A DNA stretch of 32,000 bases from Nitrososphaera viennensis EN76 (GCF_000698785.1 NZ_CP007536.1:390001-422000), one strand, 5' to 3'. Shown: positions 5,224 through 29,921, counted from the first letter of the stretch. Notes: a model not told the origin generated them from the sequence alone. Numbers and translations are program-made.

Positions 5224-5391
5224 TACGCATACACACCACCACGCCCGCGCTCAAAACCGTTTCGCTGCATGAGGTGCATGCAAAAATTGTGTAACTGCCA
5301 AGCCTTGTTACCGCGGTTACAGCAGGCGTCGGTACAGCCGCTCTTTTACTCGATTGCCAGCAAAGCATTGCTAGGTGCCATCATAGTAAGG

Positions 5392-6072: not shown

Positions 6073-6405
6073 TTACTTTTTCCCCGCAGCGATTTTTTGC
6101 AGTTGCTTTTTTATCCTTGATATCGTCGGGTAGCTGTAGCCCTTTTCGCGGTACGTGCGTATCATCGTCTTCCAGTTGTTGAGGCGCCACTTGGCCTGGT
6201 CGGCACTGAGAAGGTGCGTCTCCCTCTTGACCATGCTCTTTCTCCCCGGCATCAGATAACCACCGCTTGCAGCCATGTAGCGTTTGTACGCAAAGCGAAG
6301 GCCAAATAGCACGTCGTCAGCCGGAAGCGAATTGAGGTACATCGCAAGTTCCCTTCCCTGCTCCTCTGTCAGTTTTACCCGAAAAGCAAACTCCCTTGCA
6401 GGCAT
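6073..6405 (-). CDS. hypothetical protein with possible C-terminal helix-turn-helix
   Basis: 110 aa with an ATG start. The C-terminal segment REKGYSYPTISRIKKQLQKI looks HTH-like. A TATA-like box lies about 30 nt upstream, with palindrome copy 1 directly beyond it. Confidence 0.5.
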   Translation of the reverse strand: MPAREFAFRVKLTEEQGRELAMYLNSLPADDVLFGLRFAYKRYMAASGGYLMPGRKSMVKRETHLLSADQAKWRLNNWKTMIRTYREKGYSYPTISRIKKQLQKIAAGKK

Positions 6406-6428: not shown

Positions 6429-6440
6429 TTAATTAACTTT
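6429..6440 (-). promoter_or_regulatory. TATA-like box for ORF 6073-6405
   Basis: The minus strand reads AAAGTTAATTAA, centred about 30 nt upstream of the ATG at 6405. This spacing suggests a leaderless or short-leader mRNA. Confidence 0.4.
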
Positions 6441-6464
6441 GTTTCTAAACTCGAATTTAGAAAT
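6441..6464. repeat. 24-bp near-palindrome, copy 1 (GTTTCTAAAC-TCGA-ATTTAGAAAT)
   Basis: Read directly from the sequence. It lies 3 nt beyond the bioF stop codon and abuts the TATA-like box of ORF 6073-6405. It is near-identical to the copies at 8659 and 17019. Confidence 0.85.
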
Positions 6465-6467
6465 ATA

Positions 6468-7634
6468 CTAGATTATGCCTGTCTTTCTGCCTGCTTTTTC
6501 AAAGGCAGCCGTAGCTGCGTCAATGTGCATTTTTTCGTGCATTGCCGTGAGCGAAACGCGCAGGCGCGCCGAGCCCCTCTTTACCGTCGGGTAGCGCACG
6601 GCCTGCGCAAACACGCCGTTTTTCAAGAGTTCCTCAGAGAACGTTACCGCTTTTTTCTCGTCTCCTACCATGACAGGCATTATCTGGCTTGACGAGTTGC
6701 CGAGGGTAAACCCATGCTTCTTCAACTGGCTGGAAAACTGCCTGATGTTTTCAAACAGCCTTTTTTGCAGGTTGCCTCTTTTCGCCAGAGGGACTGCGGC
6801 GACTGCCGCTGCACAGAGGTAGTCTGGAAGCGCGGAGGTATAGATGAACTGCCTTGAGGTGTTGACCAAAAGCTCGCGGATCTTGGCGCTTGTCGCCACG
6901 TACCCGCCAAAGCAGCCGAGGCCCTTGCTCATGCTGCTGATGTGTACGTCGACCTTGGCGCCAAACTTGGCAGGGACTCCTGCAAATTTCGGGCCAAAGA
7001 TAAAGTCGCCGTGCGCGTCGTCCACTATTGTCAGTGCGTCGTACTTTTCTGCAATCCTGCAAATTTTAACAATGTCGGCCGAGTCGCCGTCCATGCTGAA
7101 AATGCCCTCTGTTATCGCGATTTTCCTTCCAGCAGCCTTTGAGACGAGATTTTCCAAGTGGGCCGTGTCGTTGTGCGCAAACACCTCTATTCTGGCGCCG
7201 GAGAGCTTGCAGGCATCGATGATGCTCGCATGGTTCAGCTCGTCGCTGAAGATCGTGGTATTTTTGTCGGCAAGCGCGGTTACTGCACCCAGGTTTGCCG
7301 CGTACCCTGTCGGGTAGACAAGTGCAGACTCTGTTCTCCTGTGCCTTGCAAGCATGTCTTCCAGCTTTGTGATGAAAGGGTCGTTTCCTGCAATTAACCG
7401 GGAGCTGCATTGCGACACCTGCCTCAATGTTCTGACCGCTGCTTGTACGACTCTCTTGTCCTGCGACAGGCCGAGGTAGTCGTTTGAGCACAAGTGAATT
7501 GCTTTTCTGCCATTGACAGTGGCAAGCGGCCCGCTCACGCTCACTGTTTTTAGCGAGCGGTACAGGCCGTCCTTTTCAAGTGCGAGAAGTTTTTCGTCTA
7601 CAAAGAGAGTAGTCTTATTTTGCTTTGAGGCCAA
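6468..7634 (-). CDS. bioF: 8-amino-7-oxononanoate synthase
   Basis: 388 aa, class-II PLP enzyme. HISSMSKGLGCFGGY carries the PLP lysine and LEKDGLYR is an N-terminal motif typical of BioF/KBL. The TTG start overlaps the bioB stop by 20 nt, and the gene sits in a bio cluster. Confidence 0.9.
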   Translation of the reverse strand: MASKQNKTTLFVDEKLLALEKDGLYRSLKTVSVSGPLATVNGRKAIHLCSNDYLGLSQDKRVVQAAVRTLRQVSQCSSRLIAGNDPFITKLEDMLARHRRTESALVYPTGYAANLGAVTALADKNTTIFSDELNHASIIDACKLSGARIEVFAHNDTAHLENLVSKAAGRKIAITEGIFSMDGDSADIVKICRIAEKYDALTIVDDAHGDFIFGPKFAGVPAKFGAKVDVHISSMSKGLGCFGGYVATSAKIRELLVNTSRQFIYTSALPDYLCAAAVAAVPLAKRGNLQKRLFENIRQFSSQLKKHGFTLGNSSSQIMPVMVGDEKKAVTFSEELLKNGVFAQAVRYPTVKRGSARLRVSLTAMHEKMHIDAATAAFEKAGRKTGII

Positions 7635-8592
7635 TCTCTTTTATCATCGTGATGTCCCTGTTGGGCGCATTGCCGCCTGTTGTCAGGTAGCCGCCGGTGA
7701 TGATGCCGTTTGCGCCGGCCTTTAGCGCAAGCTTGTCCTTGTCCTTGAGGTGGACCTCGCGCCCGCCTGCTATTTTCAATATGGTCTTGGGCATAATAAA
7801 ACGCCACACTGCTATCGTCTTGATAGCATCAGTTGGCTCGATGAGGTCTTTGTAGCCGGCAAATGGCGTCCCTTCCCTGCCAATGAGTATGTTCATCGGC
7901 ACCTCATCAGGATCCAATGACGCGATTGAAAACGCAAGCTCTAGCCTCTGCCTCGGAGTCTCGCCCATGCCGATGATTCCCCCGCAGCACAGTTCCAGGC
8001 CGGCTTCTTTCACTATTCTTGCCGTGTTTACGCGGTCTGCAAAATCATGAGTGGTGCATATCTTGGAGAAATAACTTTCCGAGGCTTCGAGGTTGTGGTT
8101 GTAGCGCTTTACTCCAAGTTCTTTCAGGCGTCTTGCCCTTTCAAGGGTCATAAAGCCAAGCGAGACATTCACCTCCGTCCCCACCCGCTCTTTTATCGCG
8201 GTTATCGTTTCGCAGATCTGCTCAAAATCCTTTTCCGGAGGCGACCTGTACGCGCAGACAAGGCAGAAATTGGTGGCGCCTCCCGCCTTGGCAATTTCCG
8301 CCTGCTCCACGATTGTTTCTTTTGGCAGGAGCGGGTACTTGTTGATGCCTGTTTCGTAAAAGGTCGACTGGGCGCAAAAACTGCAGTCCTCCGGGCACCT
8401 GCCGGATTTTGCATTAATCAGGGCTTCAACATCCACGACGTCGCCGTTGAACCTGCGCGTTATTGTGTTGGCGCAGTCTGCAAGGGCCATGACGTCGTCG
8501 GTGGCAAGCAGCCTTTCGGCTTCGTCGATTGTTATCCTGCCGCCTGCAAGCACTTTTTCCATGCAAGCCCTGATAAAAGCCGCGTCGGACAT
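7615..8592 (-). CDS. bioB: biotin synthase (radical SAM)
   Basis: 325 aa with an ATG start. The radical-SAM triad is CPEDCSFC, and YNHNLE and ITGGYLTTGG are BioB-type blocks. Confidence 0.95.
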   Translation of the reverse strand: MSDAAFIRACMEKVLAGGRITIDEAERLLATDDVMALADCANTITRRFNGDVVDVEALINAKSGRCPEDCSFCAQSTFYETGINKYPLLPKETIVEQAEIAKAGGATNFCLVCAYRSPPEKDFEQICETITAIKERVGTEVNVSLGFMTLERARRLKELGVKRYNHNLEASESYFSKICTTHDFADRVNTARIVKEAGLELCCGGIIGMGETPRQRLELAFSIASLDPDEVPMNILIGREGTPFAGYKDLIEPTDAIKTIAVWRFIMPKTILKIAGGREVHLKDKDKLALKAGANGIITGGYLTTGGNAPNRDITMIKEIGLKAK

Positions 8593-8604
8593 TTTGGAAT
8601 CGAT

Positions 8605-8639
8605 GTTGTAAACTCGTAATTAAAAGTTTGGTTTACAAC
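8605..8639. promoter_or_regulatory. BirA-type bio operator centred on the bioB TATA box
   Basis: A perfect 9-bp inverted repeat, GTTGTAAAC (8605-8613) and GTTTACAAC (8631-8639), flanks a 17-bp AT-rich spacer. The spacer contains TAATTAAAAG (8617-8626), a TATA-like box about 30 nt upstream of the bioB ATG. The half-sites match the E. coli bioO half-sites as I recall them (TTGTAAACC / GGTTTACAA). Confidence 0.65.
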
Positions 8640-8658
8640 TGAGCCAAAAAATGTCAAT

Positions 8659-8682
8659 ATTTCAAAACTCGAATTTAGAAAT
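8659..8682. repeat. 24-bp near-palindrome, copy 2 (ATTTCAAAAC-TCGA-ATTTAGAAAT)
   Basis: Read directly from the sequence. It lies 67-90 nt upstream of the bioB ATG and 91 nt beyond the cupin stop codon. Confidence 0.85.
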
Positions 8683-8772
8683 GTTGCCTGAAATCGTGCT
8701 CAAAATCGCCTATCAATAACTGACAGGTTCTGGGCGCCTGCAGCGGGGGGTTTGCAGGCCGGTTTTGGTAAT

Positions 8773-9240
8773 TTATTGTCCCCAGTGCTTTAGCCCGTCC
8801 AGGAATTCCTGACCGTATTTTCCGGCGATTTCTTGTTCCAGCTCCCCCGTTATTAGCCGTTCTTTGAGCACGTCGGCCACGCCTGCAAAATACCTTTCAA
8901 GACCTGCCGGGGATATGACTAGGACCTTGCCACCTTCCGGGCCTGACTGGTAGTTGTGCGACATTCCCTTTGGAATAAATATGAAATCTCCCGCTTTGGC
9001 AATAACCGTCTTTTCGCCGTACCTGATAGAGTATTCACCTTTAAGCACATAGTATTCTTCTGGTGCTTTTGGATGGATGTGGAGCGCGGGTCCGACATTT
9101 GGCTGATGGGTCATTTCAAGCAGGGTGTATGCTCCTTCAGACCTTTCGCCGGAGGCCTTTACTACTATCTTGGTTCCGCGAAAGTTGATATGTGTCCCTT
9201 CGCCGTTTTTCAAGGCATACCCGCCGATATCGCTTTCCAT
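8773..9240 (-). CDS. cupin-domain protein
   Basis: Two cupin motifs are present (HIHPKAPEEYYVLKGE and GDFIFIPKGMSHNY). The first ATG is at 9240, giving 155 aa. The ORF-track start at 9279 is a TTG. Confidence 0.8.
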   Translation of the reverse strand: MESDIGGYALKNGEGTHINFRGTKIVVKASGERSEGAYTLLEMTHQPNVGPALHIHPKAPEEYYVLKGEYSIRYGEKTVIAKAGDFIFIPKGMSHNYQSGPEGGKVLVISPAGLERYFAGVADVLKERLITGELEQEIAGKYGQEFLDGLKHWGQ

Positions 9241-9625
9241 GCCTTGTATTATAACCTGTGGCCATATTTCTAGGTGCAAGCCTGCTTGTGCACATCTGGC
9301 AACAATTCGGCTTTTCTGGCCTTTCTAGGTGGGGGTCTGACGCCGATTTTCTGGCAGTTATGGCCCTTGCATTTTTTGAAGTTAACAATTTGCTTGTGGA
9401 AATGGTCTTTTGGCAGAAAACCGAAAATCGTCATCGCGGCGATATGCTCGGAACCGTTCAAAAAAGGGACCTTTCTTGCATGCCACTTTTTGAACGCCCA
9501 TTTTTTTACTCTTGTTTTGTCGGCACTTGTGTACAGATGGTTTAGAAACTGCCATTACCGTTTTTAAACACTTGATCGCACTTTTTTGACTAGCCTGCTG
9601 TTAAGCTAGGCCGGCAAGACAGGCC

Positions 9626-10228
9626 ATGAAAAAGTACGCATTTGCCTACCTGCGGGTCAGCACCGAAGAGCAGACCGTTCAGAACCAAAAGCTGGCGCTG
9701 GAAAAATGGGCCAATGACAACAACTTTCAGATCCTTGACTTTTTCGAAGATTCGGCCGTTTCCGGCAGGGTTCCGGCGATCCAAAGGCGCGGGTTTTCAG
9801 ACCTTATTGAAATGGTCAAAACCGCGCAGGTCGATGCGGTTCTTGTTTACGAGCTGTCGCGGGTTGGCAGGACCTTCTGGGATACCCTTGACGCCATCAA
9901 GGCTATTGAGCAATACGCGCCGCTGCTATCCTGTTCGCCTCGCGAGTCGTTTCTGCAGACGACGGAGCCAAGCGTACGGAAATTGATGATAGGCATACTG
10001 ACCTGGGTGGCAGAGCGCGAGCGCGAGATGCTCGTCCAGCGCACAAAAGACGGCATGGAGCGCGCAAGGGCCGCTGGCCGCAGCATAGGCAGGCCCCAAA
10101 AGGTGCTCGACAAGAATCGATTGATACTGATGCTTGCAGAAAACCGCTCAAAGGCAAGGATCGCAAGGGAACTGGGCGTTTCCAAAGCGACGCTCTACAA
10201 GGAACTGCGCCAAATAAGCCAGAAATAG
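9626..10228 (+). CDS. small serine recombinase (resolvase/invertase type)
   Basis: 200 aa with an ATG start. The catalytic-serine motif is YLRVSTEEQ. Also present are VYELSRVGR, the E-helix AEREREMLVQRTKDGMERARAAGRSIGRP and a C-terminal HTH (IARELGVSKATLYKEL). Its stop is 1 nt from the convergent bioA stop. Confidence 0.9.
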   Translation: MKKYAFAYLRVSTEEQTVQNQKLALEKWANDNNFQILDFFEDSAVSGRVPAIQRRGFSDLIEMVKTAQVDAVLVYELSRVGRTFWDTLDAIKAIEQYAPLLSCSPRESFLQTTEPSVRKLMIGILTWVAEREREMLVQRTKDGMERARAAGRSIGRPQKVLDKNRLILMLAENRSKARIARELGVSKATLYKELRQISQK

Positions 10229-10229
10229 C

Positions 10230-11600
10230 CTACAGCTTTTCCGCCTTTTTTGCCAGTTCCAGGTGGGCATCCATCATCTTTTCCAGGTCGTTTCGGCCGA
10301 TTGCAAGGGGCGGGATGACGACCATGACGTTGCCCAGGGCGCGCAGATGCACACCCATTGCAAGCGACTCCCTTGCCACGAAATAGTCGATGCGCTCCTT
10401 GCTCTTGAGGTGCATGAGTGGTTTGCCGTTTCTTGCAAGCTCTATTCCTGCCAGCATGCCACTGTGGCGTACGTCTGCTACAACGCCAATTTCTTCGAAT
10501 TCGCCAAGCCTCTGCTTGATGTACTGCGCATTTTTCTTAATCTGTTGCATAAGGTTGCGTTTTTCGTAAAGTTCAAGGTTTGCCAGTGCGGCGGCGCAGC
10601 CCACCGGGTGGCCGGTAAACGTGTGGCCGTGGTAGAAATGCTTGTTTTTCTCGTAGCTGCCAAGGAACGCGTCATAGATCTTTTCATGCGCCAGCGTGAC
10701 TGCAAGAGGAAAGTAGCCGGCGGCAAGCGCCTTTCCCATGCAGACAATGTCGGGTTTTGAATTTTGCGCCAAATATTCGACCATGTTGCCAAGCCTTCCA
10801 AAGCCAGTCGCGATTTCGTCAAGGATCAAAAGAGTGTCATACTTTTTGCATAGTTCTGAAATCTTCTGCTGGTATTTCTGGGGGTAGATGACGACGCCCC
10901 CTGCTATCTGGGCGCCGCTTTCCATGACGAGGCCGGCGCATTTCCCGTCCAGTTTTTTCAGTGTCTTTTCTGTCTGCTCCATGCAGTGCTCGACAAGGTC
11001 TTGCACGCTTTCGAACTTGCTTCCGTAGAAAAGAGGGCTTGGAACCCTGCTTACCTTGGCCAATAATGGCTTGTAGGCGCCAAAGAACTGCTCGATATAT
11101 CCAACAGACATGGCGCCGACCGTGTCGCCGTGGTATCCTCCCTCAAGCGACACGAACAACTTTTTTTCAGGCTTTCCGCGGTTCTGCCAGTACTGCAGGG
11201 CCATCTTTAACGCAGCTTCAATCGCCGTCGAGCCATTGTCAGTGTAAAATACGCGGTCCATACTGCCCCTTGCCAGTTTTATCAGCCGCTCTGCAAGGCG
11301 CGCGGACGGCTCGCTTGCAAGGCCAAACAGCGTGGAATGCTGCAAGTGTTTCAACTGCTCGCGCATCGCCTCGACTACCTCGTTTTGCCCGTGGCCCCAC
11401 ACGTTGCACCACATGCTCGCAGTCCCGTCAAGGTATCGCCGGCCCCTGTCGTCGACTAGGTAAAAGCCCTCGCCCCTCACGATGACCCTGTTGTCCTGCC
11501 TTTCCCAGTCCTTCATCTGGGTATAGGGGTGCCAGACAAAATTCCTGTCTCTGTCTGCGTCTTTGAGGCTTGGACGGCCGCTCATAGTAGTTAAATGCAA
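10230..11600 (-). CDS. bioA: adenosylmethionine-8-amino-7-oxononanoate aminotransferase
   Basis: 456 aa, class-III aminotransferase. Motifs seen: FVWHPYTQM, LILDEIATGFGRLG and MGKALAAGYFPLA with the PLP lysine. An alternative ATG at 11585 (MSGRPS...) fits the TATA spacing better. Confidence 0.92.
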   Translation of the reverse strand: MHLTTMSGRPSLKDADRDRNFVWHPYTQMKDWERQDNRVIVRGEGFYLVDDRGRRYLDGTASMWCNVWGHGQNEVVEAMREQLKHLQHSTLFGLASEPSARLAERLIKLARGSMDRVFYTDNGSTAIEAALKMALQYWQNRGKPEKKLFVSLEGGYHGDTVGAMSVGYIEQFFGAYKPLLAKVSRVPSPLFYGSKFESVQDLVEHCMEQTEKTLKKLDGKCAGLVMESGAQIAGGVVIYPQKYQQKISELCKKYDTLLILDEIATGFGRLGNMVEYLAQNSKPDIVCMGKALAAGYFPLAVTLAHEKIYDAFLGSYEKNKHFYHGHTFTGHPVGCAAALANLELYEKRNLMQQIKKNAQYIKQRLGEFEEIGVVADVRHSGMLAGIELARNGKPLMHLKSKERIDYFVARESLAMGVHLRALGNVMVVIPPLAIGRNDLEKMMDAHLELAKKAEKL

Positions 11601-11625
11601 CCCCCTGCTCTATCTAATTATTTCC

Positions 11626-12324
11626 ATGCGCGGCGTGTTTGTGACAGGCACGGACACTGGTGTCGGCAAGACCGCGGTCGCGGCAGGCATCGCGTGGCTC
11701 TTGAGGAAAAATGGCATAGACGTTGCCGCGATGAAGCCGTTTGCGACCGGCAGCAAGCCTTTTTCAAAGAAATTCAAGTCAGAAGACACTGCTATCCTTG
11801 CCGAAGCCACAAATGCCATCGAGACTGATGAAGAATTGAACCCTGTCTTTTTCAGGGTGCCTGCGTCTCCGCTCATGGCCGCGCAGATCTTGAACAAGAG
11901 TCCGCCGGACGTCCACGGCGCATTGTTCCAGCTGAAAAAACTTGGAATAAAGCACCAGTTTGTGGTGGTTGAAGGCATCGGGGGCCTGATGGTTCCCCTG
12001 ACAGAGCGCGAGTTTGTAGCAGATTTTGTACGGCTTGTAGACCTGCCTGTGGTGATAGTGACGCACCCGCGCCTTGGCACTCTGAACCACACGCTTCTCA
12101 CTGTACGCGTCTGCCGCGAATTTGGCCTCGACATCCTGGGAATAGTAGTCAACATGATGCCGAAAAAGCCGAGCGCGGTAGAAAAGAACGTTCCACGCGT
12201 CCTGCAGCGGCTTGCAGGTGTGCCTGTGCTTGCAGTTCTGCCGGAGATGAAAAACAAGCCTGACTACAAGGAGATAGGCAGGCTACTTGAAAAAACGAGC
12301 GTTGCAGAAAAGGTCCTTGCCTAG
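11626..12324 (+). CDS. bioD: dethiobiotin synthase
   Basis: An ATG at 11626 gives MRGVFVTGTDTGVGKT, the P-loop found at the extreme N-terminus of BioD. VVEGIGGLMVPL is also present. The upstream part of the track ORF overlaps bioA and is discounted. Confidence 0.9.
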   Translation: MRGVFVTGTDTGVGKTAVAAGIAWLLRKNGIDVAAMKPFATGSKPFSKKFKSEDTAILAEATNAIETDEELNPVFFRVPASPLMAAQILNKSPPDVHGALFQLKKLGIKHQFVVVEGIGGLMVPLTEREFVADFVRLVDLPVVIVTHPRLGTLNHTLLTVRVCREFGLDILGIVVNMMPKKPSAVEKNVPRVLQRLAGVPVLAVLPEMKNKPDYKEIGRLLEKTSVAEKVLA

Positions 12325-12905
12325 CCGTGCAGCATTTTCAGGCTGCTGACGCCCTTGCGCGCAAGGAACGCGCGAATGTCAGAAACCACCGATGAATATT
12401 GGAATTTTGCATTGCCAAGATGGTAATTCCTGCCTTTATAATCAACCTTTCTTGCAGAAATTATCCATAAATTTTCAATATTTTTTTGGACTGCCTGCGC
12501 CTGCTTTATCCTTGCCATGTCTGCATTTGCTTTTATCACTTGTATAACAAGAGTCTTGTCAGGGCTTTTTGCAAGGTTCTTTACGGATGGCACGACCACG
12601 TCAAGCTCCGTTCCATCCACAGTCACTTTTCTTTCTGATGGCAAAAGCGACGCGGTGAGCATGAAATGCAAGAGCGCCTCGCACAAGTTTCCAAGCGCCT
12701 CGTCGTCGTTTGCCTCGCCACCAAGGTCGTGCGTGCACCTGTCTACTATTTCGGCGCAGTATTTCCTTGACGATTCAATATTGGAACTGACGTCTGCGCG
12801 GATCCTTTCTCTGCCAATGTCGTCAATGACTGCATAGAGGACCTCTTTGATATCCTTGGGCACACCCTTGCAAACCCGGGTACGTTTATTAAATCTGATT
12901 GCCAT
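12321..12905 (-). CDS. hypothetical protein (weak PD-(D/E)xK-like pattern)
   Basis: 194 aa with an ATG start and a 4-nt overlap with the bioD stop. The segment GTELDVVVPS...TLVIQVIK loosely resembles a D...(E/Q)xK nuclease core. I recognise no family with confidence. Confidence 0.5.
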   Translation of the reverse strand: MAIRFNKRTRVCKGVPKDIKEVLYAVIDDIGRERIRADVSSNIESSRKYCAEIVDRCTHDLGGEANDDEALGNLCEALLHFMLTASLLPSERKVTVDGTELDVVVPSVKNLAKSPDKTLVIQVIKANADMARIKQAQAVQKNIENLWIISARKVDYKGRNYHLGNAKFQYSSVVSDIRAFLARKGVSSLKMLHG

Positions 12906-12919
12906 TTAATACAGAGAGA

Positions 12920-13342
12920 ATGGCAAAGGTCAAGATTGCAATCGGCCTGCTTGTCGCTTCGCTGGTGCTTTTGGTAATATACGGTGCAGATGCCGCGGTA
13001 GCTAGTTCCAGCCCAGACCGCCGGGGATTTCTCCCGTTTGACGAGTCAGTGAGGGGCAGCGGGTTTGGAGGAGGCGCTGTAATAATGTCGATAATTGCTT
13101 TTGTCATTGCAAGAAAAGAACCGTCAAGGGCGGTCATGGCGCTGCTCTTTGTCAACGGCGGCCTGATAATCGCCGGCATGCTTGCCCTCATTGCGCAGGG
13201 CGCGCTTGCCTCCGAGAACTCGTCAGGCGCAATGCGCACAATCGGTAGCACTATTGGCATGGGCGCAATCCTGGTGGGCCTTGGCGCCTGGAAGGCTGCA
13301 GGCGACAGGCGCATCGCGAGCAAGCCGCAGGCCTCGAGATAG
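12920..13342 (+). CDS. small integral membrane protein (about 4 TM helices)
   Basis: An ATG at 12920 (MAKVKIAIGLLVASLVLLVIYG...) is followed by four hydrophobic helices. A TATA-like TTTATTAAAT lies at 12883-12894, about 31 nt upstream. The antisense 196-aa ORF has junk-like composition. Confidence 0.55.
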   Translation: MAKVKIAIGLLVASLVLLVIYGADAAVASSSPDRRGFLPFDESVRGSGFGGGAVIMSIIAFVIARKEPSRAVMALLFVNGGLIIAGMLALIAQGALASENSSGAMRTIGSTIGMGAILVGLGAWKAAGDRRIASKPQASR

Positions 13343-13475
13343 TTTTGTTGCCTGTCTGCGCGCGCTGCAACTCGCACGCTGACAGGACGTACTCTTGCGT
13401 GCACACAGATGGCAAGGAAATGTGTACCGAATGCTACCAGGAAATACACTGGCTCCTGACGCAGCCTGGATGATA

Positions 13476-13487
13476 ACATTTTATACG
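13476..13487 (+). promoter_or_regulatory. TATA-like box for the 13509-17006 operon
   Basis: ACATTTTATACG is centred about 27 nt upstream of the ATG at 13509, a spacing consistent with a leaderless mRNA. Confidence 0.45.
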
Positions 13488-13508
13488 ATTGTACAGGAAT
13501 TCTGGGCT

Positions 13509-14195
13509 ATGAAAGCAGTAATCCTTGCAGGCGGCTTTGGCAAGCGTCTGAAGCCATTGACAGACCAGATACCAAAGCCCATGATCGAGGTGTCAAACCT
13601 CCCGATAATCGAGTGGCAGATAAAGTGGCTGGCCGGAAACGGCATAAAGGAGTTCATAATCTGCGTCGGCTACCTGAAAGAACAGATAATAAACCACATC
13701 GGGAGCGGGAGCAGGCTTGGCGTCAGGGTGGGCTATGCTGTCGAGGAAGAGCCACTTGGGACCGGAGGCGCTCTAAAGAATGCAGAGGGTCTTCTTTCCG
13801 GCCAGAGCGAGTTTTTCATGCTAAACGGCGACATACTCTCAAACCTTGATCCTTCAAAGTTGCGCGATGGCGGGGCGGCGCACTCGCTTGCACTTGTGCC
13901 GCTGCGCAGCCCGTACGGCGTAGTCGAGGTGGACAAGTCAAACAAGGTGCTCGGGTTCGTGGAAAAGCCCCGGATAAAGGACAGGTGGATAAACGCAGGA
14001 GTCTACCATTTCACGAGCGAGGTGTTTTCGTACCTGCCCGAAAACGGCAACATAGAGATGACCGCCCTGCCTGCACTGGCAAAGGAAGGGAAACTCAGGG
14101 CAACCACCTACGACAATGTTTTTTGGCGTTCCATTGATTCACACAAGGACATCGAAGAAGCCGCAAGGGAAATGCAGGCTGCAAACATCTCATGA
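13509..14195 (+). CDS. sugar-phosphate nucleotidyltransferase (NTP_transferase family)
   Basis: An ATG at 13509 gives MKAVILAGGFGKRLKPLT, the GxGxRLxPLT signature. EEEPLGTGGAL and FMLNGD are also present. The stop overlaps the next start (ATGATGA at 14192). Confidence 0.85.
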   Translation: MKAVILAGGFGKRLKPLTDQIPKPMIEVSNLPIIEWQIKWLAGNGIKEFIICVGYLKEQIINHIGSGSRLGVRVGYAVEEEPLGTGGALKNAEGLLSGQSEFFMLNGDILSNLDPSKLRDGGAAHSLALVPLRSPYGVVEVDKSNKVLGFVEKPRIKDRWINAGVYHFTSEVFSYLPENGNIEMTALPALAKEGKLRATTYDNVFWRSIDSHKDIEEAAREMQAANIS

Positions 14196-15166
14196 TGAAG
14201 ATCGGGTACAGCCTCGGGCCGCTCCTTTCAATGGAGGATGTGCTCCGGTGCGCAAGCCTTGCAGATGAGCAGAATAACGTCGACTCGGTATGGGTCCCGG
14301 AATCGTGGGGCCGCGAGTCGTTTTCAACGCTTGGAGCCGTGGCGCAGGCTACGAAAAGGGTAAGGCTTGGCACCTCAATAGTCAGCATTTTCTCAAGGAC
14401 GCCTGCCACAATAGCGATGGGCGCAGCCACGCTTGACATGATCTCTGGGAACAGGACAGTCATCGGCCTTGGCACGAGCACGGAAGCCATCGTCGAGAAC
14501 TGGCACGGGGCAGAGTTTGAGAAGCCCGCTTCTCGAATGAAGGAATACGTCGAATGCATCCGGCTCATGACTTCTGGCGAGAAGGTCAGCTATTCCGGCG
14601 AGTTTTTCAAGATAAACAATTTCAAGATGCTAAACGCGCCTCCTAGAAAGCATGTCCCTATTTTTCTTGCGGCCGTCAACAGGCGCATGCTTGCGCTTGC
14701 CGCGGAAAAGGCAGACGGCGTGATCCTTTACATGCGCCCCCTTGAAGAGCTGGAAAAAACAGTGCCCGAGCTAAAGGCAAGGGCCGCCGCGGACAACTTT
14801 GAAGTCGCGCTCTCGCTCATCTGCGCCGTGTCGGACAAAGAGCCGGAAAAAGCCAGGGCGCGGGCAGCAAAGACCCTTGCATTCTATGTTGCAGTCGGCA
14901 AGTATTACAGCAGGTTCCTTGCGGAAAACGGCTATAGCGACGAAGTGTCTCGCATTTCAGCCGAATATCAAGAGAGCGGTGGCGACGCGGCCGCAAAACA
15001 GGTCTCGCCAGAGATGCTTGAGGCGCTGACGGTCTGCGGCACAAAACAAGACTGCAGAAAGGCGCTTTTGCGGTTTTCTGATTCTGGTGTCACCCTGCCA
15101 ATTTTGCAGTTCAACCCTGTAGAGAGAGCAGAAAGTTCATTTAGGGAATTGTTGTCAACCTTTTAA
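14192..15166 (+). CDS. luciferase-like monooxygenase family oxidoreductase, probably F420-dependent
   Basis: 324 aa with the LLM pattern (DSVWVPESWGRE, LGTSIVSIFSRTPATIAM, IGLGTS..., FLAAVNRRMLALAAEKADGVIL). F420 dependence is inferred from the archaeal family, not demonstrated. Confidence 0.8.
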   Translation: MMKIGYSLGPLLSMEDVLRCASLADEQNNVDSVWVPESWGRESFSTLGAVAQATKRVRLGTSIVSIFSRTPATIAMGAATLDMISGNRTVIGLGTSTEAIVENWHGAEFEKPASRMKEYVECIRLMTSGEKVSYSGEFFKINNFKMLNAPPRKHVPIFLAAVNRRMLALAAEKADGVILYMRPLEELEKTVPELKARAAADNFEVALSLICAVSDKEPEKARARAAKTLAFYVAVGKYYSRFLAENGYSDEVSRISAEYQESGGDAAAKQVSPEMLEALTVCGTKQDCRKALLRFSDSGVTLPILQFNPVERAESSFRELLSTF

Positions 15167-15167
15167 A

Positions 15168-16265
15168 GTGCGCAAGGTAGCTATCTCGGCTGCAGCAACT
15201 TCAAAGTTCACAAAAGCAACCGAGAGGTCGATTTTTGACATCGCGCGCGAGCCCTGCATCGAGATTTTAAAAAGCCACGGCAGCAAGGATGTCGACGCCG
15301 TGCTCTTCTCGACGTGCGCAACAGAGCAGTACGGCTCGACAATAATTTCTGAAATGCTCGGGATAAAACCCAAGATGTCGCAGCGAGTCGACAACCTCTG
15401 CAATTCCGGGACAAACGCTATTGCTACCGCGTATTCGCTTATCGCGTCTGGCCTGTGCGACTCTGCACTTGTCGTCGGCGCGGAAAAAACACACAGCGAG
15501 GGAAACAGGCTTGTCTGGGACGTCACCCGGGGTTCGTTCAACTTTCCAGTCCACTGGGCATCAATGTTTGCGCGTTCGCACATGAGGCGATTTGGAACCA
15601 CGGAGGAGCAGATGGCCCAGGTGTCAGTAAAGAACCACAAAAACGCTGCAAAAAACAAGAACGCGCTCTTTCAAAAGCCTGTGACACTAAAAGAGGTGAT
15701 GGAGTCAAAAATGATAGCCGAGCCGGTAAAGCTGCTCGACTGCTCGGCGCCGTGCGACGGCGCCTCTGCCGTGCTCCTGCTCTCTGAGCAAAGGGCAAAG
15801 AAAAATGAAAACAGCCCTGTGTGGATAAAGGGCATAGGCCAGCAAACAAACGGCGCCAGCTTTGCAAGCATGGATGACCTGACCGCGCTTCAAACCGCCA
15901 GGCGGGCTGCGCATGACGCATACGAAATGGCCAATGTCAAGCCATCCCAGGTGGATGTCGCCGAGCTGCATGACGCTTTTACAATCCTTGAGATAATGGC
16001 GTACGAGGACCTCTGCTTTGCGCAAAAGGGCAAGGGGGGCAAGTTCGCTGAGCAACAGCAGCAGGAAATCGCGATAAACCCACGCGGCGGGATACTCGGG
16101 TGCGGCCACCCCGTGGGCGCCACCGGCGTGGCGCAGGTCGCCGAGATAACTCTGCAACTGTCCGGCAAGGCCGGAAAAAGGCAGGTCAAAGACTGCAAGA
16201 CTGGCCTCGTGCACAACCTTGCTGCCGCCGGCTCGTCAGCGACGGTGATGGTGCTTGGTACCTAG
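15168..16265 (+). CDS. thiolase-family acetyl-CoA C-acyltransferase (archaeal SCP-x type)
   Basis: 365 aa with a GTG start 1 nt after the preceding stop. NLCNSGTNAI contains the active-site Cys region, and GGILGCGHPVGATGV is the C-terminal thiolase block. Confidence 0.9.
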   Translation: MRKVAISAAATSKFTKATERSIFDIAREPCIEILKSHGSKDVDAVLFSTCATEQYGSTIISEMLGIKPKMSQRVDNLCNSGTNAIATAYSLIASGLCDSALVVGAEKTHSEGNRLVWDVTRGSFNFPVHWASMFARSHMRRFGTTEEQMAQVSVKNHKNAAKNKNALFQKPVTLKEVMESKMIAEPVKLLDCSAPCDGASAVLLLSEQRAKKNENSPVWIKGIGQQTNGASFASMDDLTALQTARRAAHDAYEMANVKPSQVDVAELHDAFTILEIMAYEDLCFAQKGKGGKFAEQQQQEIAINPRGGILGCGHPVGATGVAQVAEITLQLSGKAGKRQVKDCKTGLVHNLAAAGSSATVMVLGT

Positions 16266-16299
16266 TCTTTTTATCGAACACTTGAAAAAAGGGGAATTT

Positions 16300-16605
16300 A
16301 TGGTGCCAGTATGCACATTATGCGGGAAAAAGGCCTGGCCGCCGTCGCCTGCCTGCCCGAAATGCTTTGGCAGGACTGTGCTGAAAAAAGTTGAAAAAAC
16401 AGGAACGCTGGTAGAGTTTTCAAACTCGTACGTCCGGGGCCACGAAGGCGTCTTTGGCATCATAGAAATGGACGGCTTTAGGCTCGTTGGCTCGCTTGAC
16501 GATGACGGCAAGCTGCGCAAGGGCATGAAGGTCAAGATGGACAGTTGCGGCGTGAACGTAGAAGGCGCGCCGTTTTACCACTTTACTCCAGCAACAACAA
16601 AATGA
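16300..16605 (+). CDS. DUF35 zinc-ribbon/OB-fold protein (thiolase partner)
   Basis: An ATG at 16300 gives a CTLCGK...CPKCFG rubredoxin-like ribbon followed by an OB-fold-like segment. It sits immediately downstream of the thiolase gene, as is usual in archaea. Confidence 0.8.
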   Translation: MVPVCTLCGKKAWPPSPACPKCFGRTVLKKVEKTGTLVEFSNSYVRGHEGVFGIIEMDGFRLVGSLDDDGKLRKGMKVKMDSCGVNVEGAPFYHFTPATTK

Positions 16606-16643
16606 ATGCTTATTAATGATTGAGAGAGAACAGGAACAGGCTC

Positions 16644-17006
16644 ATGAGTTATGACAGGTTCGTTGATGAGAGGGTCCTGACAAGCAGGGATGCCCTCAAC
16701 CGTTTTCAGATCAAGATAAAACTCGTCGAAATCGACGAAGGCGCAAGAGACTTTTCCCGGCGCTTTGGCAACAGGGTCCTCGTCAGAAAGATCCTGCTTA
16801 CGATAAAGCACACCGAGACCCAGGAAGTGGAAGAAAGGGAGCTCAACGTCGAAGAGGTTGAAAAGAGGATGAAAAAAGAGCGCCTCTTCAGTTCCACGAA
16901 CAGGTGGGTCGCGTCGACTGACATCAAGAATGGCTACGTGGTCGCAAGCAAGCATCTTGACCTCCTTGCAGACGCAATAGCGCTGGACATCGTTCCGATC
17001 GGATAG
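16644..17006 (+). CDS. hypothetical protein (120 aa)
   Basis: ATG at 16644, with an upstream TTG at 16620 also possible. It is co-directional with and 38 nt after the DUF35 gene. The composition is charged and coding-like, but I recognise no family. Confidence 0.45.
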   Translation: MSYDRFVDERVLTSRDALNRFQIKIKLVEIDEGARDFSRRFGNRVLVRKILLTIKHTETQEVEERELNVEEVEKRMKKERLFSSTNRWVASTDIKNGYVVASKHLDLLADAIALDIVPIG

Positions 17007-17018
17007 ACAGACGGAGAT

Positions 17019-17042
17019 ATTTCAAAACTCGAATTATGAAAT
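17019..17042. repeat. 24-bp near-palindrome, copy 3 (ATTTCAAAAC-TCGA-ATTATGAAAT)
   Basis: Read directly from the sequence. It lies 13 nt after the stop of ORF 16644-17006 and overlaps the stop codon (17034-17036) of the convergent wHTH gene. Confidence 0.85.
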
Positions 17043-17489
17043 AGGGCGCTTTATCCACACCCTTAACGTTTCTACCCAAAAGGCTACGGCGCCGGCCACT
17101 GCAAAGCCTATGGCAAACACATCCAGGTTGTCAAAATTCAGGACGACGTACGCAATGAGCATCGTCGTAAAAAATGCCGCAAAGAACGACAGCCTCGGCA
17201 CCGCAAGCCCGCCAATGTTGACAAACGCCTGCAGCACCCCTACCTGCACCTTCTGGATGATATAGTACCGGCCGTACTCGTCCTGGCCCACGAGTGCAAG
17301 CTGCACTAGCTTGTCGATGTGATAGTTTGCAACGCTTGGGCTTGAAAAGTAGAGGTCGCGCTGCACCTCGCGCACCCCTACCGGCTCTTTTCGCTTTATC
17401 ATGTACATGTACACCTGCAGAGTCTTTCCCTTCAGCTGCTCCTCTATCTTGTCGTTGCTGCTGCCTGCCTGCTCGTTATCTTTGGACAA
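17034..17489 (-). CDS. winged-helix DNA-binding domain fused to C-terminal transmembrane helices
   Basis: 151 aa. The N-terminal wHTH pattern is LQVYMYMIKRKEPVGVREVQRDLYFSSPSVANYHIDKLVQLALV. Two hydrophobic helices follow (LSFFAAFFTTMLIAYVVL and FAIGFAVAGAVAFWV). A TTG start is required to include helix 1. Confidence 0.6.
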   Translation of the reverse strand: MSKDNEQAGSSNDKIEEQLKGKTLQVYMYMIKRKEPVGVREVQRDLYFSSPSVANYHIDKLVQLALVGQDEYGRYYIIQKVQVGVLQAFVNIGGLAVPRLSFFAAFFTTMLIAYVVLNFDNLDVFAIGFAVAGAVAFWVETLRVWIKRPIS

Positions 17490-17561: not shown

Positions 17562-17671
17562 TGGCGCCGCTGACCAGACTCGAACTGGTGACCCACTGGT
17601 TAACAGCCAGTTAAGCTCCGAAGCACAATATTGCGCTTTGAATTTGCTCTACCATGCTGAGCTACAGCGGC
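17562..17671 (-). tRNA. tRNA-Asn(GTT): tRNA-Asn (anticodon GUU) with a 33-nt intron at a non-canonical position and an encoded CCA
   Basis: Hand-folded from the sequence. The arms are: acceptor GCCGCUG/CAGCGGC; D arm GCUC-AGCAUGGUA-GAGC; anticodon arm ACUGG-CUGUUAA-CCAGU; variable loop GGGUC; T arm ACCAG-UUCGAGU-CUGGU. The discriminator is G and CCA is encoded. A 34-nt stretch at 17612-17645 separates the D stem from the anticodon stem; one of these nucleotides is position 26. Confidence 0.8.
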
Positions 17672-29229: not shown

Positions 29230-29763
29230 TTACTTCTTTTGACCTGCCGCCGTCAGTTCCTTGTATTCTGGCCTTTCCATCGCCCTTGCAAGCGCCGCGT
29301 TGATGATTTCAAGGGCGAGAAACTCCCGGCACTTGCCGTCCTTGTCAAGCGCCAAAAAGCGCTTGTCTTCGTGCACGCTCTTTAGCACCTTTGCCAGCTT
29401 GCCGCTCACATCGTCAATCAGCCGCAAAGCCTTGCTGTCAAGGTCTGCCGGCGCCTGGCAGTCAAACACGCGAAGCGTGGCAGAATAGTACTTCATCACC
29501 GCGCCCCTGACCTCGACCATCCTTGCCGCCTCTATCAGGCCCGCCTCCTTGAGCGCGTCAAGGTGGTGCCTGACCGTGGTCGTGGCCTTTTTGACGCCAG
29601 CGTTTCCAAGCGCTTTTGCGATTTCCTCTGCGTTCATGGGCTTGTGGCTTACAAGCTCCAGTATTCGCATTCTTGCAGGGTCGCTTAGCCCCTGCGCGGC
29701 CGCGTGGTTCAAGGTGGTCACGCGCCTTACTCTTACGTCCTTTTGGAACAGTGCATCTGCCAT
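29230..29763 (-). CDS. ArsR-family winged-helix transcriptional regulator
   Basis: An ATG at 29763 gives 177 aa; the track start at 29775 is a TTG. The HTH is LSDPARMRILELVSHKPMNAEEIAKALG...TTVRHHLDALKEAGLIE. Confidence 0.85.
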   Translation of the reverse strand: MADALFQKDVRVRRVTTLNHAAAQGLSDPARMRILELVSHKPMNAEEIAKALGNAGVKKATTTVRHHLDALKEAGLIEAARMVEVRGAVMKYYSATLRVFDCQAPADLDSKALRLIDDVSGKLAKVLKSVHEDKRFLALDKDGKCREFLALEIINAALARAMERPEYKELTAAGQKK

Positions 29764-29921
29764 ATGTGAGTACAAGATGATGTGTGCATAGTAAAGTGCG
29801 CTTGTCTGATTGTTTTGCCCTGCTGGTTAATTACAATCATGTCAATAGTTGCAATTCAGCATAGATAGTAGGGTTATCAACCCAATCGTCTTTAGTTCAT
29901 TGCAATGAAATGATACTATTG

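Follow-up and report, generated by a model that had tools for sequence, protein, structure and literature searches.

The stretch of Nitrososphaera viennensis EN76 DNA analyzed here, 32 kb in full and referred to as the window, contains a biotin synthesis unit, a small serine recombinase gene and three copies of a 24-bp near-palindrome. The copies can be read directly from the sequence at positions 6441-6464, 8659-8682 and 17019-17042. A degenerate pattern allowing up to three mismatches finds only these three sites in the 32 kb and none in 100 dinucleotide-preserving shuffles, which confirms the three copies of the initial annotation against a chance expectation of none. Pairwise, they differ at 2, 2 and 4 of 24 positions, within the range of two to four given earlier, and their flanks are unrelated. 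The element is thus discrete and conserved, as had been proposed, and not part of a segmental duplication. Family-wide, conservation continues for 2-3 bp beyond the 24-mer on each side, making the unit a 28-bp palindrome with the consensus ATRTTTCTAAAY-TCGA-RTTTAGAAAYAT, apparently undescribed until now. A position-weight scan returned no weaker copies in the window. No further copies were found in about 18 kb of additional flank from the same genome, giving three sites in the roughly 50 kb covered.

Copies 1 and 2 enclose the biotin genes bioF (6468-7634) and bioB (7615-8592), which form a minus-strand unit at 6468-8592. This bracketing, already pointed out in the initial annotation, is real and is kept in at least six other Nitrososphaerales genomes. 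Copy 1 (TTGTTTCTAAACTCGAATTTAGAAATAT, 6439-6466) lies 1 nt past the bioF stop codon. Its other edge is 2 nt from the likely TATA box, TTAATTAA (6429-6436, minus strand, assigned from sequence geometry), of a 110-aa gene at 6073-6405 on the minus strand. The distance from the TATA centre to the ATG, 27.5 nt, would be consistent with a leaderless transcript, and copy 1 takes the BRE position beside the box. The 110-aa protein belongs to an AOA-wide, all-helical family (c6; AOA, ammonia-oxidizing archaea); its AlphaFold model is poor (pLDDT 63) and uninformative. Copy 2 (ATATTTCAAAACTCGAATTTAGAAATGT, 8657-8684) lies 88 nt past the stop codon of a cupin gene and 64 nt upstream of the bioB ATG. Between it and that ATG is an inverted repeat, TTGTAAAC-N17-GTTTACAA (8606-8638, minus strand), which encloses TTTTAATTA and surrounds the bioB TATA box. 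It resembles the BirA signal, and we take it to be a BirA-type operator-like element.

The serine recombinase gene, whose product combines a resolvase catalytic domain with HTH_7, is found at 9626-10228 on the plus strand. Copy 3 (ATATTTCAAAACTCGAATTATGAAATAG, 17017-17044) lies further along, 10 nt past the stop codon of a 128-aa gene of family c34 (16620-17006, plus strand). The winged-helix gene placed here earlier (16575-16955, minus strand) is a shadow ORF of this gene. Copy 3 is therefore located between two convergent genes, and overlaps the final codons and stop codon of the second (17034-17489, minus strand). That gene encodes a 151-aa protein, winged-HTH-like with membrane segments by sequence, which has no Pfam or NCBIfam match. 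It is inserted in this lineage between the palindrome and its ancestral upstream neighbor, a tRNA-Asn(GTT) gene whose non-canonical intron is about 33 nt long (17562-17671, minus strand). By orthology, copy 3 corresponds to the ancestral site that follows this tRNA. In other Nitrososphaerales, 5 of 9 c34 loci have the palindrome between a 1-bp overlap with the stop codon and 10 bp from it.

To our knowledge, almost nothing is known of gene regulation in AOA, whose numbers in soils and oceans place them with the most abundant microbes, and a literature search found no cis-regulatory element common to all of them. Scanning prokaryotes at one genome per species gave at least 120 stretches matching the pattern of the palindrome. 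Among the matches listed, 118 of 120 are from AOA and cover all major lineages, and the two bacterial ones lack the conserved flanks. Across the AOA lineages sampled, Nitrosocaldus through Nitrosopumilus, the sequence hardly varies. Its consensus is perfectly palindromic, and in both AOA orders the information content remains symmetric as far as 14 bp on either side of the centre. Such dyad symmetry, with equal information in both half-sites, is what an operator would display. Site scores in the position-weight scan are sharply bimodal, with about 225 sites and none in shuffles, ruling out a degenerate promoter or terminator consensus.

The initial annotation had described the copies as lying in the same orientation, on the basis of a C...A pair around TCGA. 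This holds for the three window copies and is not a property of the family. Over 173-176 sites, a total that like the tallies varies by a few sites between counts, the central pair is T..A in 93-94, C..G in 33-34, C..A in 23-26 and T..G in 22. The asymmetric forms are unbiased relative to the direction of transcription (T..G 16 versus C..A 14). Sites are more alike within one genome than between genomes (43% versus 15% identical), and this likeness fits co-evolution with one putative binding protein. The palindrome is low-copy, about ten orthologous contexts accounting for nearly all sites, where copies per genome are read from contexts recurring among the matches listed rather than counted. 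REP- or MITE-like repeats would instead be numerous, dispersed and at non-orthologous positions.

All of the roughly ten contexts are intergenic and lie close to where the large ribosomal-protein operon ends. Among them are both flanks of the biotin unit, upstream of bioB and past bioF, the position that immediately follows tRNA-Asn, and the one next to the TATA box of the 110-aa gene. The palindrome occupies 36/41 loci past tRNA-Asn and 19/20 past a PNPOx-like gene; upstream of genes, it occupies 23/24 loci for a DUF2299 gene, 31/36 for a Zn-ribbon gene, 17/28 for the 110-aa gene and 9/20 for bioB. Divergent, co-directional and convergent gaps all contain the palindrome, and in divergent host regions it is roughly midway between the two gene starts. 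Convergent gaps hold 27 sites, about a quarter, with no annotated promoter there; these include copy 3 and a highly conserved site 9 bp past the PNPOx-like gene. In the 17 of 28 loci where it precedes the 110-aa gene, at about 31 nt, the arrangement is the palindrome, then 2-5 nt, then TTAATTAA, with the ATG about 27 nt past the TATA centre. At bioB, DUF2299 and the Zn-ribbon gene it is 35-50 bp upstream of the TATA box, so that contexts differ in this spacing, with values of 2 to about 50 bp.

The same sequence is carried by approximately 48 virus-like circular contigs, each about 4.2 kb long, with one copy apiece. These contigs form a previously undescribed episome family with no recognizable replication, integration or partition genes, and the palindrome ties these orphan elements to AOA hosts. 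In each, it fills an 86-bp gap between divergent genes, and the start codons are 30-31 nt from each edge of its 22-bp core. Larger non-coding gaps exist elsewhere in the elements, yet the palindrome sits between the divergent genes.

The lead reading of the initial annotation was that the copies are crossover sites of the adjacent resolvase. In such a Mpi- or Hin-like system, the product of the gene at 9626-10228 would bind the palindrome and invert or excise the segments between copies. The architectural likeness on which this relied is genuine. The 12+4+12 layout, conserved to 14 bp from the centre and A/T-rich inside, is that of crossover site I of small serine recombinases, as in gamma-delta/Tn3 res. 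In res site I and in the hix/gix sites of Hin and Gin, as in the palindrome, a short core separates two inverted half-sites of about 12 bp, the span is about 26-28 bp, the inner half is A/T-rich and the outer half more specific, and a resolvase-type gene is close by here. The recombinase retains the catalytic Ser and Arg residues and a GR arm motif. In 25 Nitrososphaerales loci it keeps synteny with the bio/palindrome region. Its gene and bioA are always convergent in this order, and it is more conserved than bioA, bioB and bioF. Moreover, the palindrome borders evolutionary inversions. In two loci (L017 and L124) bioBF lies inverted exactly between two sites, with inner and outer spacings kept, and other blocks bounded by the palindrome are inverted or permuted between lineages.

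In the loci and contigs covered, the distribution of the palindrome does not follow that of the enzyme. The same consensus occurs in 67 Nitrosopumilales-type loci that contain no recombinase gene, and none of the roughly 48 viral contigs encodes one, so the element is kept across AOA loci and viral contigs where the recombinase is absent, an outcome that the initial annotation had itself named as fatal to its lead reading. In a search of 1.84 billion representative proteins, relatives from outside Nitrososphaerales were rare and formed only small clusters. A locus titled Nitrososphaera sp. (L054) carries the palindrome but lacks the recombinase in the interval from bioB to bioA. Resolvase homologues of viruses reach at most 38% identity, and the palindrome is absent from their vicinity. 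Inversions are seen between species, while the 15 contigs of this species show a single arrangement with no rearrangement at the palindrome, a difference from res site I and hix/gix. Accessory sites are lacking as well, and the core dinucleotide CG is symmetric, so the site cannot carry direction. In the enzyme itself, the equivalent of gamma-delta D67 is Ser. Its upstream region has different conserved A-tract repeats, three copies of GTTCAAAAANGG, which are the more plausible cognate sites. The recombination-site idea as stated is largely refuted, and we regard a crossover function as very unlikely. Some link between the two may nevertheless exist, given the resolvase-like layout of the palindrome, the unusual conservation of the enzyme and the inversions bordered by the palindrome. 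The analysis nonetheless flags this recombinase as exceptionally conserved in soil AOA and probably domesticated.

Positions just past genes raise another alternative, also mentioned in the initial annotation, in which the palindrome acts as RNA. It would form a 3'-end hairpin that serves as a terminator (with a U-run) or a stabilizer, read by a hairpin-specific protein. The palindrome is within about 19 bp past tRNA-Asn, bioF, PNPOx, c34 and Trx377, and copies in tandem come after the highly expressed ribosomal-protein operon and tRNA. A four-T run is present within 20 nt downstream in 33/109 cases in the sense direction versus 14/109 antisense, and there is some covariation, positions 9/14 forming 126 Watson-Crick pairs against 97 expected. 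These T-runs double as TATA-like boxes, however, and the counts are inflated by orthologous sites. The predicted stem is weak, folding at -3.0 to -6.8 kcal/mol (window copies in the sense direction, -3.0 to -5.5), with z-scores of -0.9 to -3.0 for the window-copy hairpins. On the transcribed strand G.U is not preferred over A.C, and the flank pair runs opposite to the G.U wobble expectation. Across the AOA lineages sampled the sequence itself is conserved, beyond pairing, and it has no Rfam match. A terminator would show a stable stem and U-tract, orientation and restriction to 3' ends, whereas a four-T run follows 30% of sites, strand bias is absent, and in hosts and all viral elements the palindrome also occurs between divergent promoters, hence at no 3' end. 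Its low copy number argues against a general terminator. REP/BIME palindromes and intrinsic terminators likewise often lie just past stop codons, but the palindrome differs from them in being low-copy and at orthologous positions, in its weak A/U-rich stem without a consistent U-tract, and in its occurrence between divergent promoters. We give the RNA reading very little credence.

The proximity to core promoters could also mean that the palindrome is itself a specialized bidirectional core promoter. Each half, CGAA plus TTTAGAAA, would serve as BRE and TATA for a TFB/TBP paralogue and fire outward. Each half does resemble a BRE-plus-TATA string, AOA have many TFB paralogues, and the DUF2299 promoter has a half-like ATTTAGAAT beside its TATA box. 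The distance from core edge to start codon is 30-37 nt at the 110-aa gene and on either side in the viral elements. On the other hand, the 110-aa gene and bioB have their own conserved TATA boxes outside the palindrome at the ideal leaderless distance. At many sites neither side has a gene start, or the start is only 50-90 nt away. The inner AAAYTCGARTTT is far stricter than a BRE would require, and ordinary promoters in the same loci do not look like the palindrome. This makes a core promoter highly improbable.

A protein-binding site need not act on transcription. The palindrome might be comparable to parS, with a centromere/partition, chromosome-organizing or replication-linked role. It would then need only to lie between genes, and small episomes would carry it to hitch-hike on the host system. 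Consistent with this, it is a near-invariant, low-copy palindrome in the AOA lineages sampled, with copies clustered beside the ribosomal-protein operon and in convergent, co-directional and divergent gaps. Tiny circular elements without replication or partition genes hold exactly one. Bacterial parS is likewise a short perfect palindrome, widely conserved and present in few copies in one region. Unlike parS, which is often inside genes, this archaeal element is essentially never intragenic and is tied to promoter edges. Its spacing to downstream promoters is conserved, and the viral copy is squeezed between two core promoters rather than located in the larger non-coding gaps. No ParB-, SegB-, SMC- or ParA-type gene was recognized beside it among the annotated minority of flanking families, and the clustering is deduced from 8-kb stretches, not whole genomes. 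A non-transcriptional role seems unlikely on balance. Quite unlikely, too, is a more specific version in which a putative AOA-specific protein lands on the palindrome to organize or partition the domain by the ribosomal-protein operon, the 4.2-kb episomes carry it to hijack this system, and the soil-lineage recombinase by bioA might act on it.

Tentatively, and with somewhat less than even confidence, we favor the palindrome as the operator of a putative dimeric DNA-binding regulator. This role was a secondary suggestion of the initial annotation, made from copy 1 abutting the TATA box of the 6073-6405 gene. It is favored because of the AOA specificity, perfect symmetry and low-copy orthologous positions of the sites, the promoter geometry at the 110-aa gene and in the viral divergent gap, the absence of strand bias relative to transcription, and the likeness of sites within a genome. 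A symmetric, sequence-specific protein conserved in AOA would recognize the palindrome on double-stranded DNA, at a handful of copies per genome at transcription-unit edges in one neighborhood by the end of the ribosomal-protein operon. Where the site abuts a core promoter, as at copy 1 and both divergent promoters of the 4.2-kb elements, its outer bases take the BRE position next to the TATA box. A protein bound there would directly govern how TBP, TFB and RNA polymerase assemble. Where it is 35-50 bp upstream of TATA, as at copy 2 and, in other lineages, at the genes for DUF2299, an 82-aa Zn-ribbon protein and a CdvB-like protein, it may be an upstream regulatory site alongside gene-specific operators. 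The bound protein would activate or repress these promoters.

Such an arrangement has precedents. Some archaeal transcription-factor operators overlap or abut BRE/TATA, and archaeal viruses borrow host factors, for example Sta1 on SIRV1 promoters. The palindrome resembles these in its dyad symmetry, its position directly upstream of a TATA box, its conservation at orthologous promoters and the host-type site on viral promoters. It differs in being 28 bp, long for a typical archaeal operator, near-invariant across the AOA sampled, clustered in a single neighborhood, and convergent in about a quarter of cases. The convergent sites, this length, the variable spacing to TATA and the confinement of all sites to one 10-20 kb neighborhood, unusual for a regulon, count against an operator, as does the lack of an obvious common physiological theme among target genes.

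Candidate binders are the 110-aa c6 protein, an ArsR-type protein (HTH_5/HTH_20, family c17), the Zn-ribbon protein and the recombinase. The c17 gene is conserved in the neighborhood of the palindrome in both AOA orders. ArsR/SmtB-type operators are long A/T-rich inverted repeats of similar span, but their 12-2-12 layout has a 2-bp spacer versus 4 bp here, and no palindrome was found upstream of the nearby c17 gene, a further point against the operator reading. The palindrome provides a direct handle for fishing out its putative binding protein, and it marks a small conserved set of loci that comprises biotin synthesis, a CdvB-type division protein and several small proteins.

The three near-palindromes described in the initial annotation are present in the window with exactly the sequences claimed. 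They belong to a 28-bp palindrome with a TCGA center, here called M (copy 1, 6439-6466; copy 2, 8657-8684; copy 3, 17017-17044). A degenerate-pattern search allowing up to 3 mismatches returned 3 sites in the window and 0 in 100 dinucleotide-preserving shuffles. A separate mismatch scan and a later position-weight scan detected no weaker relatives in the 32-kb window, and a scan of ~18 kb of additional flank from the same genome found no further copies. The window matches the Nitrososphaera chromosome CP103305.1, and its recombinase carries an annotation in N. viennensis. Pfam, NCBIfam and public gene calls give the gene order as a CdvB-like gene, a 110-aa orphan gene (6073-6405, minus strand), bioF, bioB, cupin, a small serine recombinase (9626-10228, plus), bioA, bioD, a block of NTP-transferase, F420-type LLM oxidoreductase, thiolase and DUF35 genes, a 128-aa gene of family c34 (16620-17006, plus), a gene for a 151-aa protein (17034-17489, minus), and a large ribosomal-protein operon. 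The 128-aa protein is highly conserved, with 70-82% identity across the order. The 151-aa protein looks like a winged HTH with membrane segments and has no Pfam or NCBIfam match. A minus-strand "wHTH" ORF (16575-16955), earlier read as a gene, shadows the 128-aa gene on the plus strand. This places copy 3 in a convergent gap of 27 bp, where it provides the final codons and the stop of the 151-aa gene.

We then scanned one genome per prokaryotic species with the pattern TTTCWWAAYTCGARTTWWGAAA, which gave at least 120 stretches. Among the matches listed, 118 of 120 stretches come from ammonia-oxidizing archaea (AOA), among them the genera Nitrososphaera, Nitrosocosmicus, Nitrosopumilus, Nitrosarchaeum, Nitrosotenuis, Nitrosotalea, Nitrosopelagicus, and Nitrosocaldus. 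The two bacterial matches in this set lack conserved flanks and look like chance matches. The consensus of the 173-174 instances among the matches listed is a perfect palindrome, and conservation reaches ATR...YAT, defining the 28-bp unit ATRTTTCTAAAY-TCGA-RTTTAGAAAYAT. Its information profile is identical in soil-type and marine-type lineages. A weight-matrix scan of ~800 kb of loci gave sharply bimodal scores, with ~225 sites above 27, very few intermediate, and 0 in shuffles. Searches by sequence and by topic turned up no earlier account of M in the literature that could be searched. A diverged variant, ATTGCACAATTCGAATTCTG..., occurs ~75 bp from canonical M in Nitrosocosmicus-like lineages (host loci L105:2524, L106:338 and 6095, L042:425).

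Genes in the M-bearing loci were predicted from codon bias, by a method whose calls in the window agreed with the public ones, and their proteins were clustered. Among the matches listed, M almost never falls inside genes, lying in 109 co-directional, 27 convergent, and 13 divergent gaps, and about 10 orthologous contexts cover nearly all sites. It lies 0-6 bp past the 3' end of tRNA-Asn (36/41 loci listed), where a second or third copy frequently follows after 60-82 bp; 9 bp past the stop of a PNPOx-like gene (19/20); and 2 bp past bioF (11/22). Upstream positions are 87-88 bp before an 82-aa Zn-ribbon gene (31 of 36 loci listed), ~64 bp before a DUF2299 gene (23 of 24), ~31 bp before the 110-aa gene (17 of 28), ~63 bp before bioB (9 of 20), and ~77 bp before a CdvB-like gene (7 of 25). 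All listed contexts form one syntenic neighborhood around the end of the ribosomal-protein operon. Since one small set of contexts recurs across ~105 genomes, the copy number of M per genome must be small, as judged from the matches listed. A REP-like or general terminator family was ruled out because the scores are bimodal and the positions orthologous.

Copy 3 corresponds by orthology to the ancestral site beside tRNA-Asn; insertion of the 151-aa gene has moved it 522 bp away from the tRNA. The tRNA-Asn(GTT) gene (17562-17671, minus) has a non-canonical intron of ~33 nt and an encoded CCA end; ARAGORN did not call it, and it was recognized once aligned with tRNA-Asn genes from other loci. 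Two further features of the neighborhood were seen. The first is an invariant ~88-nt leader between M and the Zn-ribbon gene (L011, L016, L077, and others), with boxes ATTAGAC-N6-GATCTAAT and GCAGGAGG. This leader is retained even in Nitrosopelagicus, where M at that position is lost; Rfam and consensus RNA folding gave no known family and no covariation-supported structure. The second is a gene for a repetitive Lys/Arg/Ala-rich protein (APKRKAAKRRA repeats) opposite the PNPOx-like gene (L010, L011, L043, L055, and others). This small gene runs toward M from the opposite direction, carries an oligo-T stretch of its own, and may encode a chromatin-type protein.

The same pattern search of IMG/VR returned 51 contigs. 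About 48 of these fall into a single family with lengths of 4.1-4.6 kb. Several members have terminal repeats, as circular genomes would, and these elements are probably episomes or viruses of marine AOA. Every member has one copy of M, placed in an 86-bp gap that separates two divergently transcribed genes. The start codons are 30-31 nt away from either edge of the 22-bp core, and a TATA-like sequence abuts M directly on both sides. We consider the reading of M as a specialized bidirectional promoter quite improbable, on a par with an RNA element. In L139 (1-4206), the sole element examined in detail, larger non-coding gaps occur elsewhere than at M; its ORFs have no Pfam or PHROGs match, and no recombinase, Rep, or integrase was found. 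Small Zn-ribbon, RHH-like, and Lys/Arg-rich proteins are among these orphans. We rejected a provirus or attachment-site origin, as the viral contigs have no protein-level similarity to the 120 host loci. Profile comparison likewise found no viral homologues of host M-adjacent proteins, and the viral contigs with a gene for a resolvase relative were all devoid of M.

We asked whether M is read as DNA or as RNA. The initial annotation had offered an RNA hairpin or terminator as an alternative, which did not hold up and which we likewise rate as quite improbable. Hairpins formed by the window copies have low stability (-3.0 to -5.5 kcal/mol, sense strand), and M has no Rfam match. Reading the C..A asymmetry common to the three copies as a U.G pair on the transcribed strand was rejected, since asymmetric central pairs do not prefer U.G (16 vs 14 family-wide), and the flank pair favors A.C over G.U. 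Where M lies between divergent promoters it cannot be a 3'-end element. T runs downstream of M are modestly enriched (33/109 vs 14/109, counts that orthologous sites inflate) and can equally be read as TATA-like boxes. Symmetric positions of M covary somewhat, independently of GC content, which was ruled out as the cause at positions 9/14 because the covariation persists within GC classes. Sites of one genome are also more alike than sites of different genomes. Both features fit a putative symmetric protein co-evolving with its sites. From the weak hairpins, the lack of wobble preference, the divergent sites, the covariation, and the within-genome likeness, we take M to be a site that such a protein reads on DNA. 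A protein roadblock terminator is unlikely by inference, because a tight block 0-6 bp past the tRNA-Asn end and 1-9 bp past stops would yield truncated products.

The lead reading of the initial annotation was that M is the crossover site of the neighboring serine recombinase. In this protein a complete resolvase catalytic domain is combined with an HTH_7 domain. It keeps the catalytic Ser, conserved Arg residues, and GR arm; the equivalent of gamma-delta D67 is Ser throughout the subfamily. Blocks bordered by M vary in orientation between lineages, and in L017 and L124 the inversion of bioBF runs exactly from one M site to another, which favors a recombination site. However, the M consensus is unchanged in those marine lineages and viral contigs where no recombinase is seen, relatives of the recombinase are rare outside Nitrososphaerales, and no rearrangement at M was seen among 15 contigs of this species. 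The gene also has its own upstream elements, different from M: three GTTCAAAAANGG-like A-tract repeats within 9450-9600 (9456+, 9484-, 9558-), conserved across the order, which may be the recombinase's binding sites. We therefore hold a recombinase site to be improbable. The recombinase is convergent with bioA in all 25 Nitrososphaerales loci and is 67-96% identical across lineages where bioA is 51-91% and bioF 49-73% identical, and the sequence clusters that share at least 82% identity with it number more than 120. Judged by sequence identity, this conservation is housekeeping-like, unlike that of a mobile-element gene. Three relatives (P0121, P0123, P0125) lie on short contigs only and were uninformative. 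Upstream of the recombinase, 9540-9549 holds a single M half-site, which was dismissed because it is not conserved past the closest relative.

The geometry at promoters would be compatible with an operator. At the 110-aa gene, a conserved TTAATTAA follows M by 2-5 nt and its center is 27 nt from the ATG, the distance expected of a leaderless archaeal mRNA. These spacings place M in the position of the BRE, the element beside the TATA box. The structure model of the 110-aa protein was too poor for use as a search query. At bioB, a TATA-like TTTTAATTA lies 33 nt before the ATG within an inverted repeat, TTGTAAAC-N17-GTTTACAA (8606-8638), which we take to resemble a BirA operator; M is ~34 nt further upstream than the TATA-like box. 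The repeat is missing from the bioB promoters of L017, L100, and L124, where the TATA box is retained. At the DUF2299, Zn-ribbon, and CdvB-like genes, separate promoter boxes or palindromes occur 35-50 nt past M. Immediately ahead of the start codon, CdvB-like (ESCRT-III) genes of marine lineages (L040, L051, L056, L087, L121, L125) carry the 16-bp palindrome TGTAACTGCAGTTACA, likely a separate operator. A related GTTACCGCGGTTAC occurs at 5307-5320, upstream of the CdvB-like gene of the window.

The most likely explanation, which we hold tentatively at somewhat under even chances, is that M is an operator for a putative AOA-wide DNA-binding regulator. At copy 1 and in the viral elements, the operator would work directly on the core promoters next to it; copy 2 would serve as an upstream site. 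The operator model does not account for copy 3 or the other convergent sites. The main rival, a non-transcriptional, parS-like site, is unlikely but ranks second, ahead of the recombinase site and then the bidirectional promoter and RNA element. A candidate M-binding protein is an ArsR-type (HTH_5/HTH_20) regulator of ~170-180 aa, encoded at 29230-29775 (minus). Its gene is conserved in the M neighborhood in both AOA orders, and in marine lineages it and the PNPOx-like gene share an apparent operon, the end of which lies at M.
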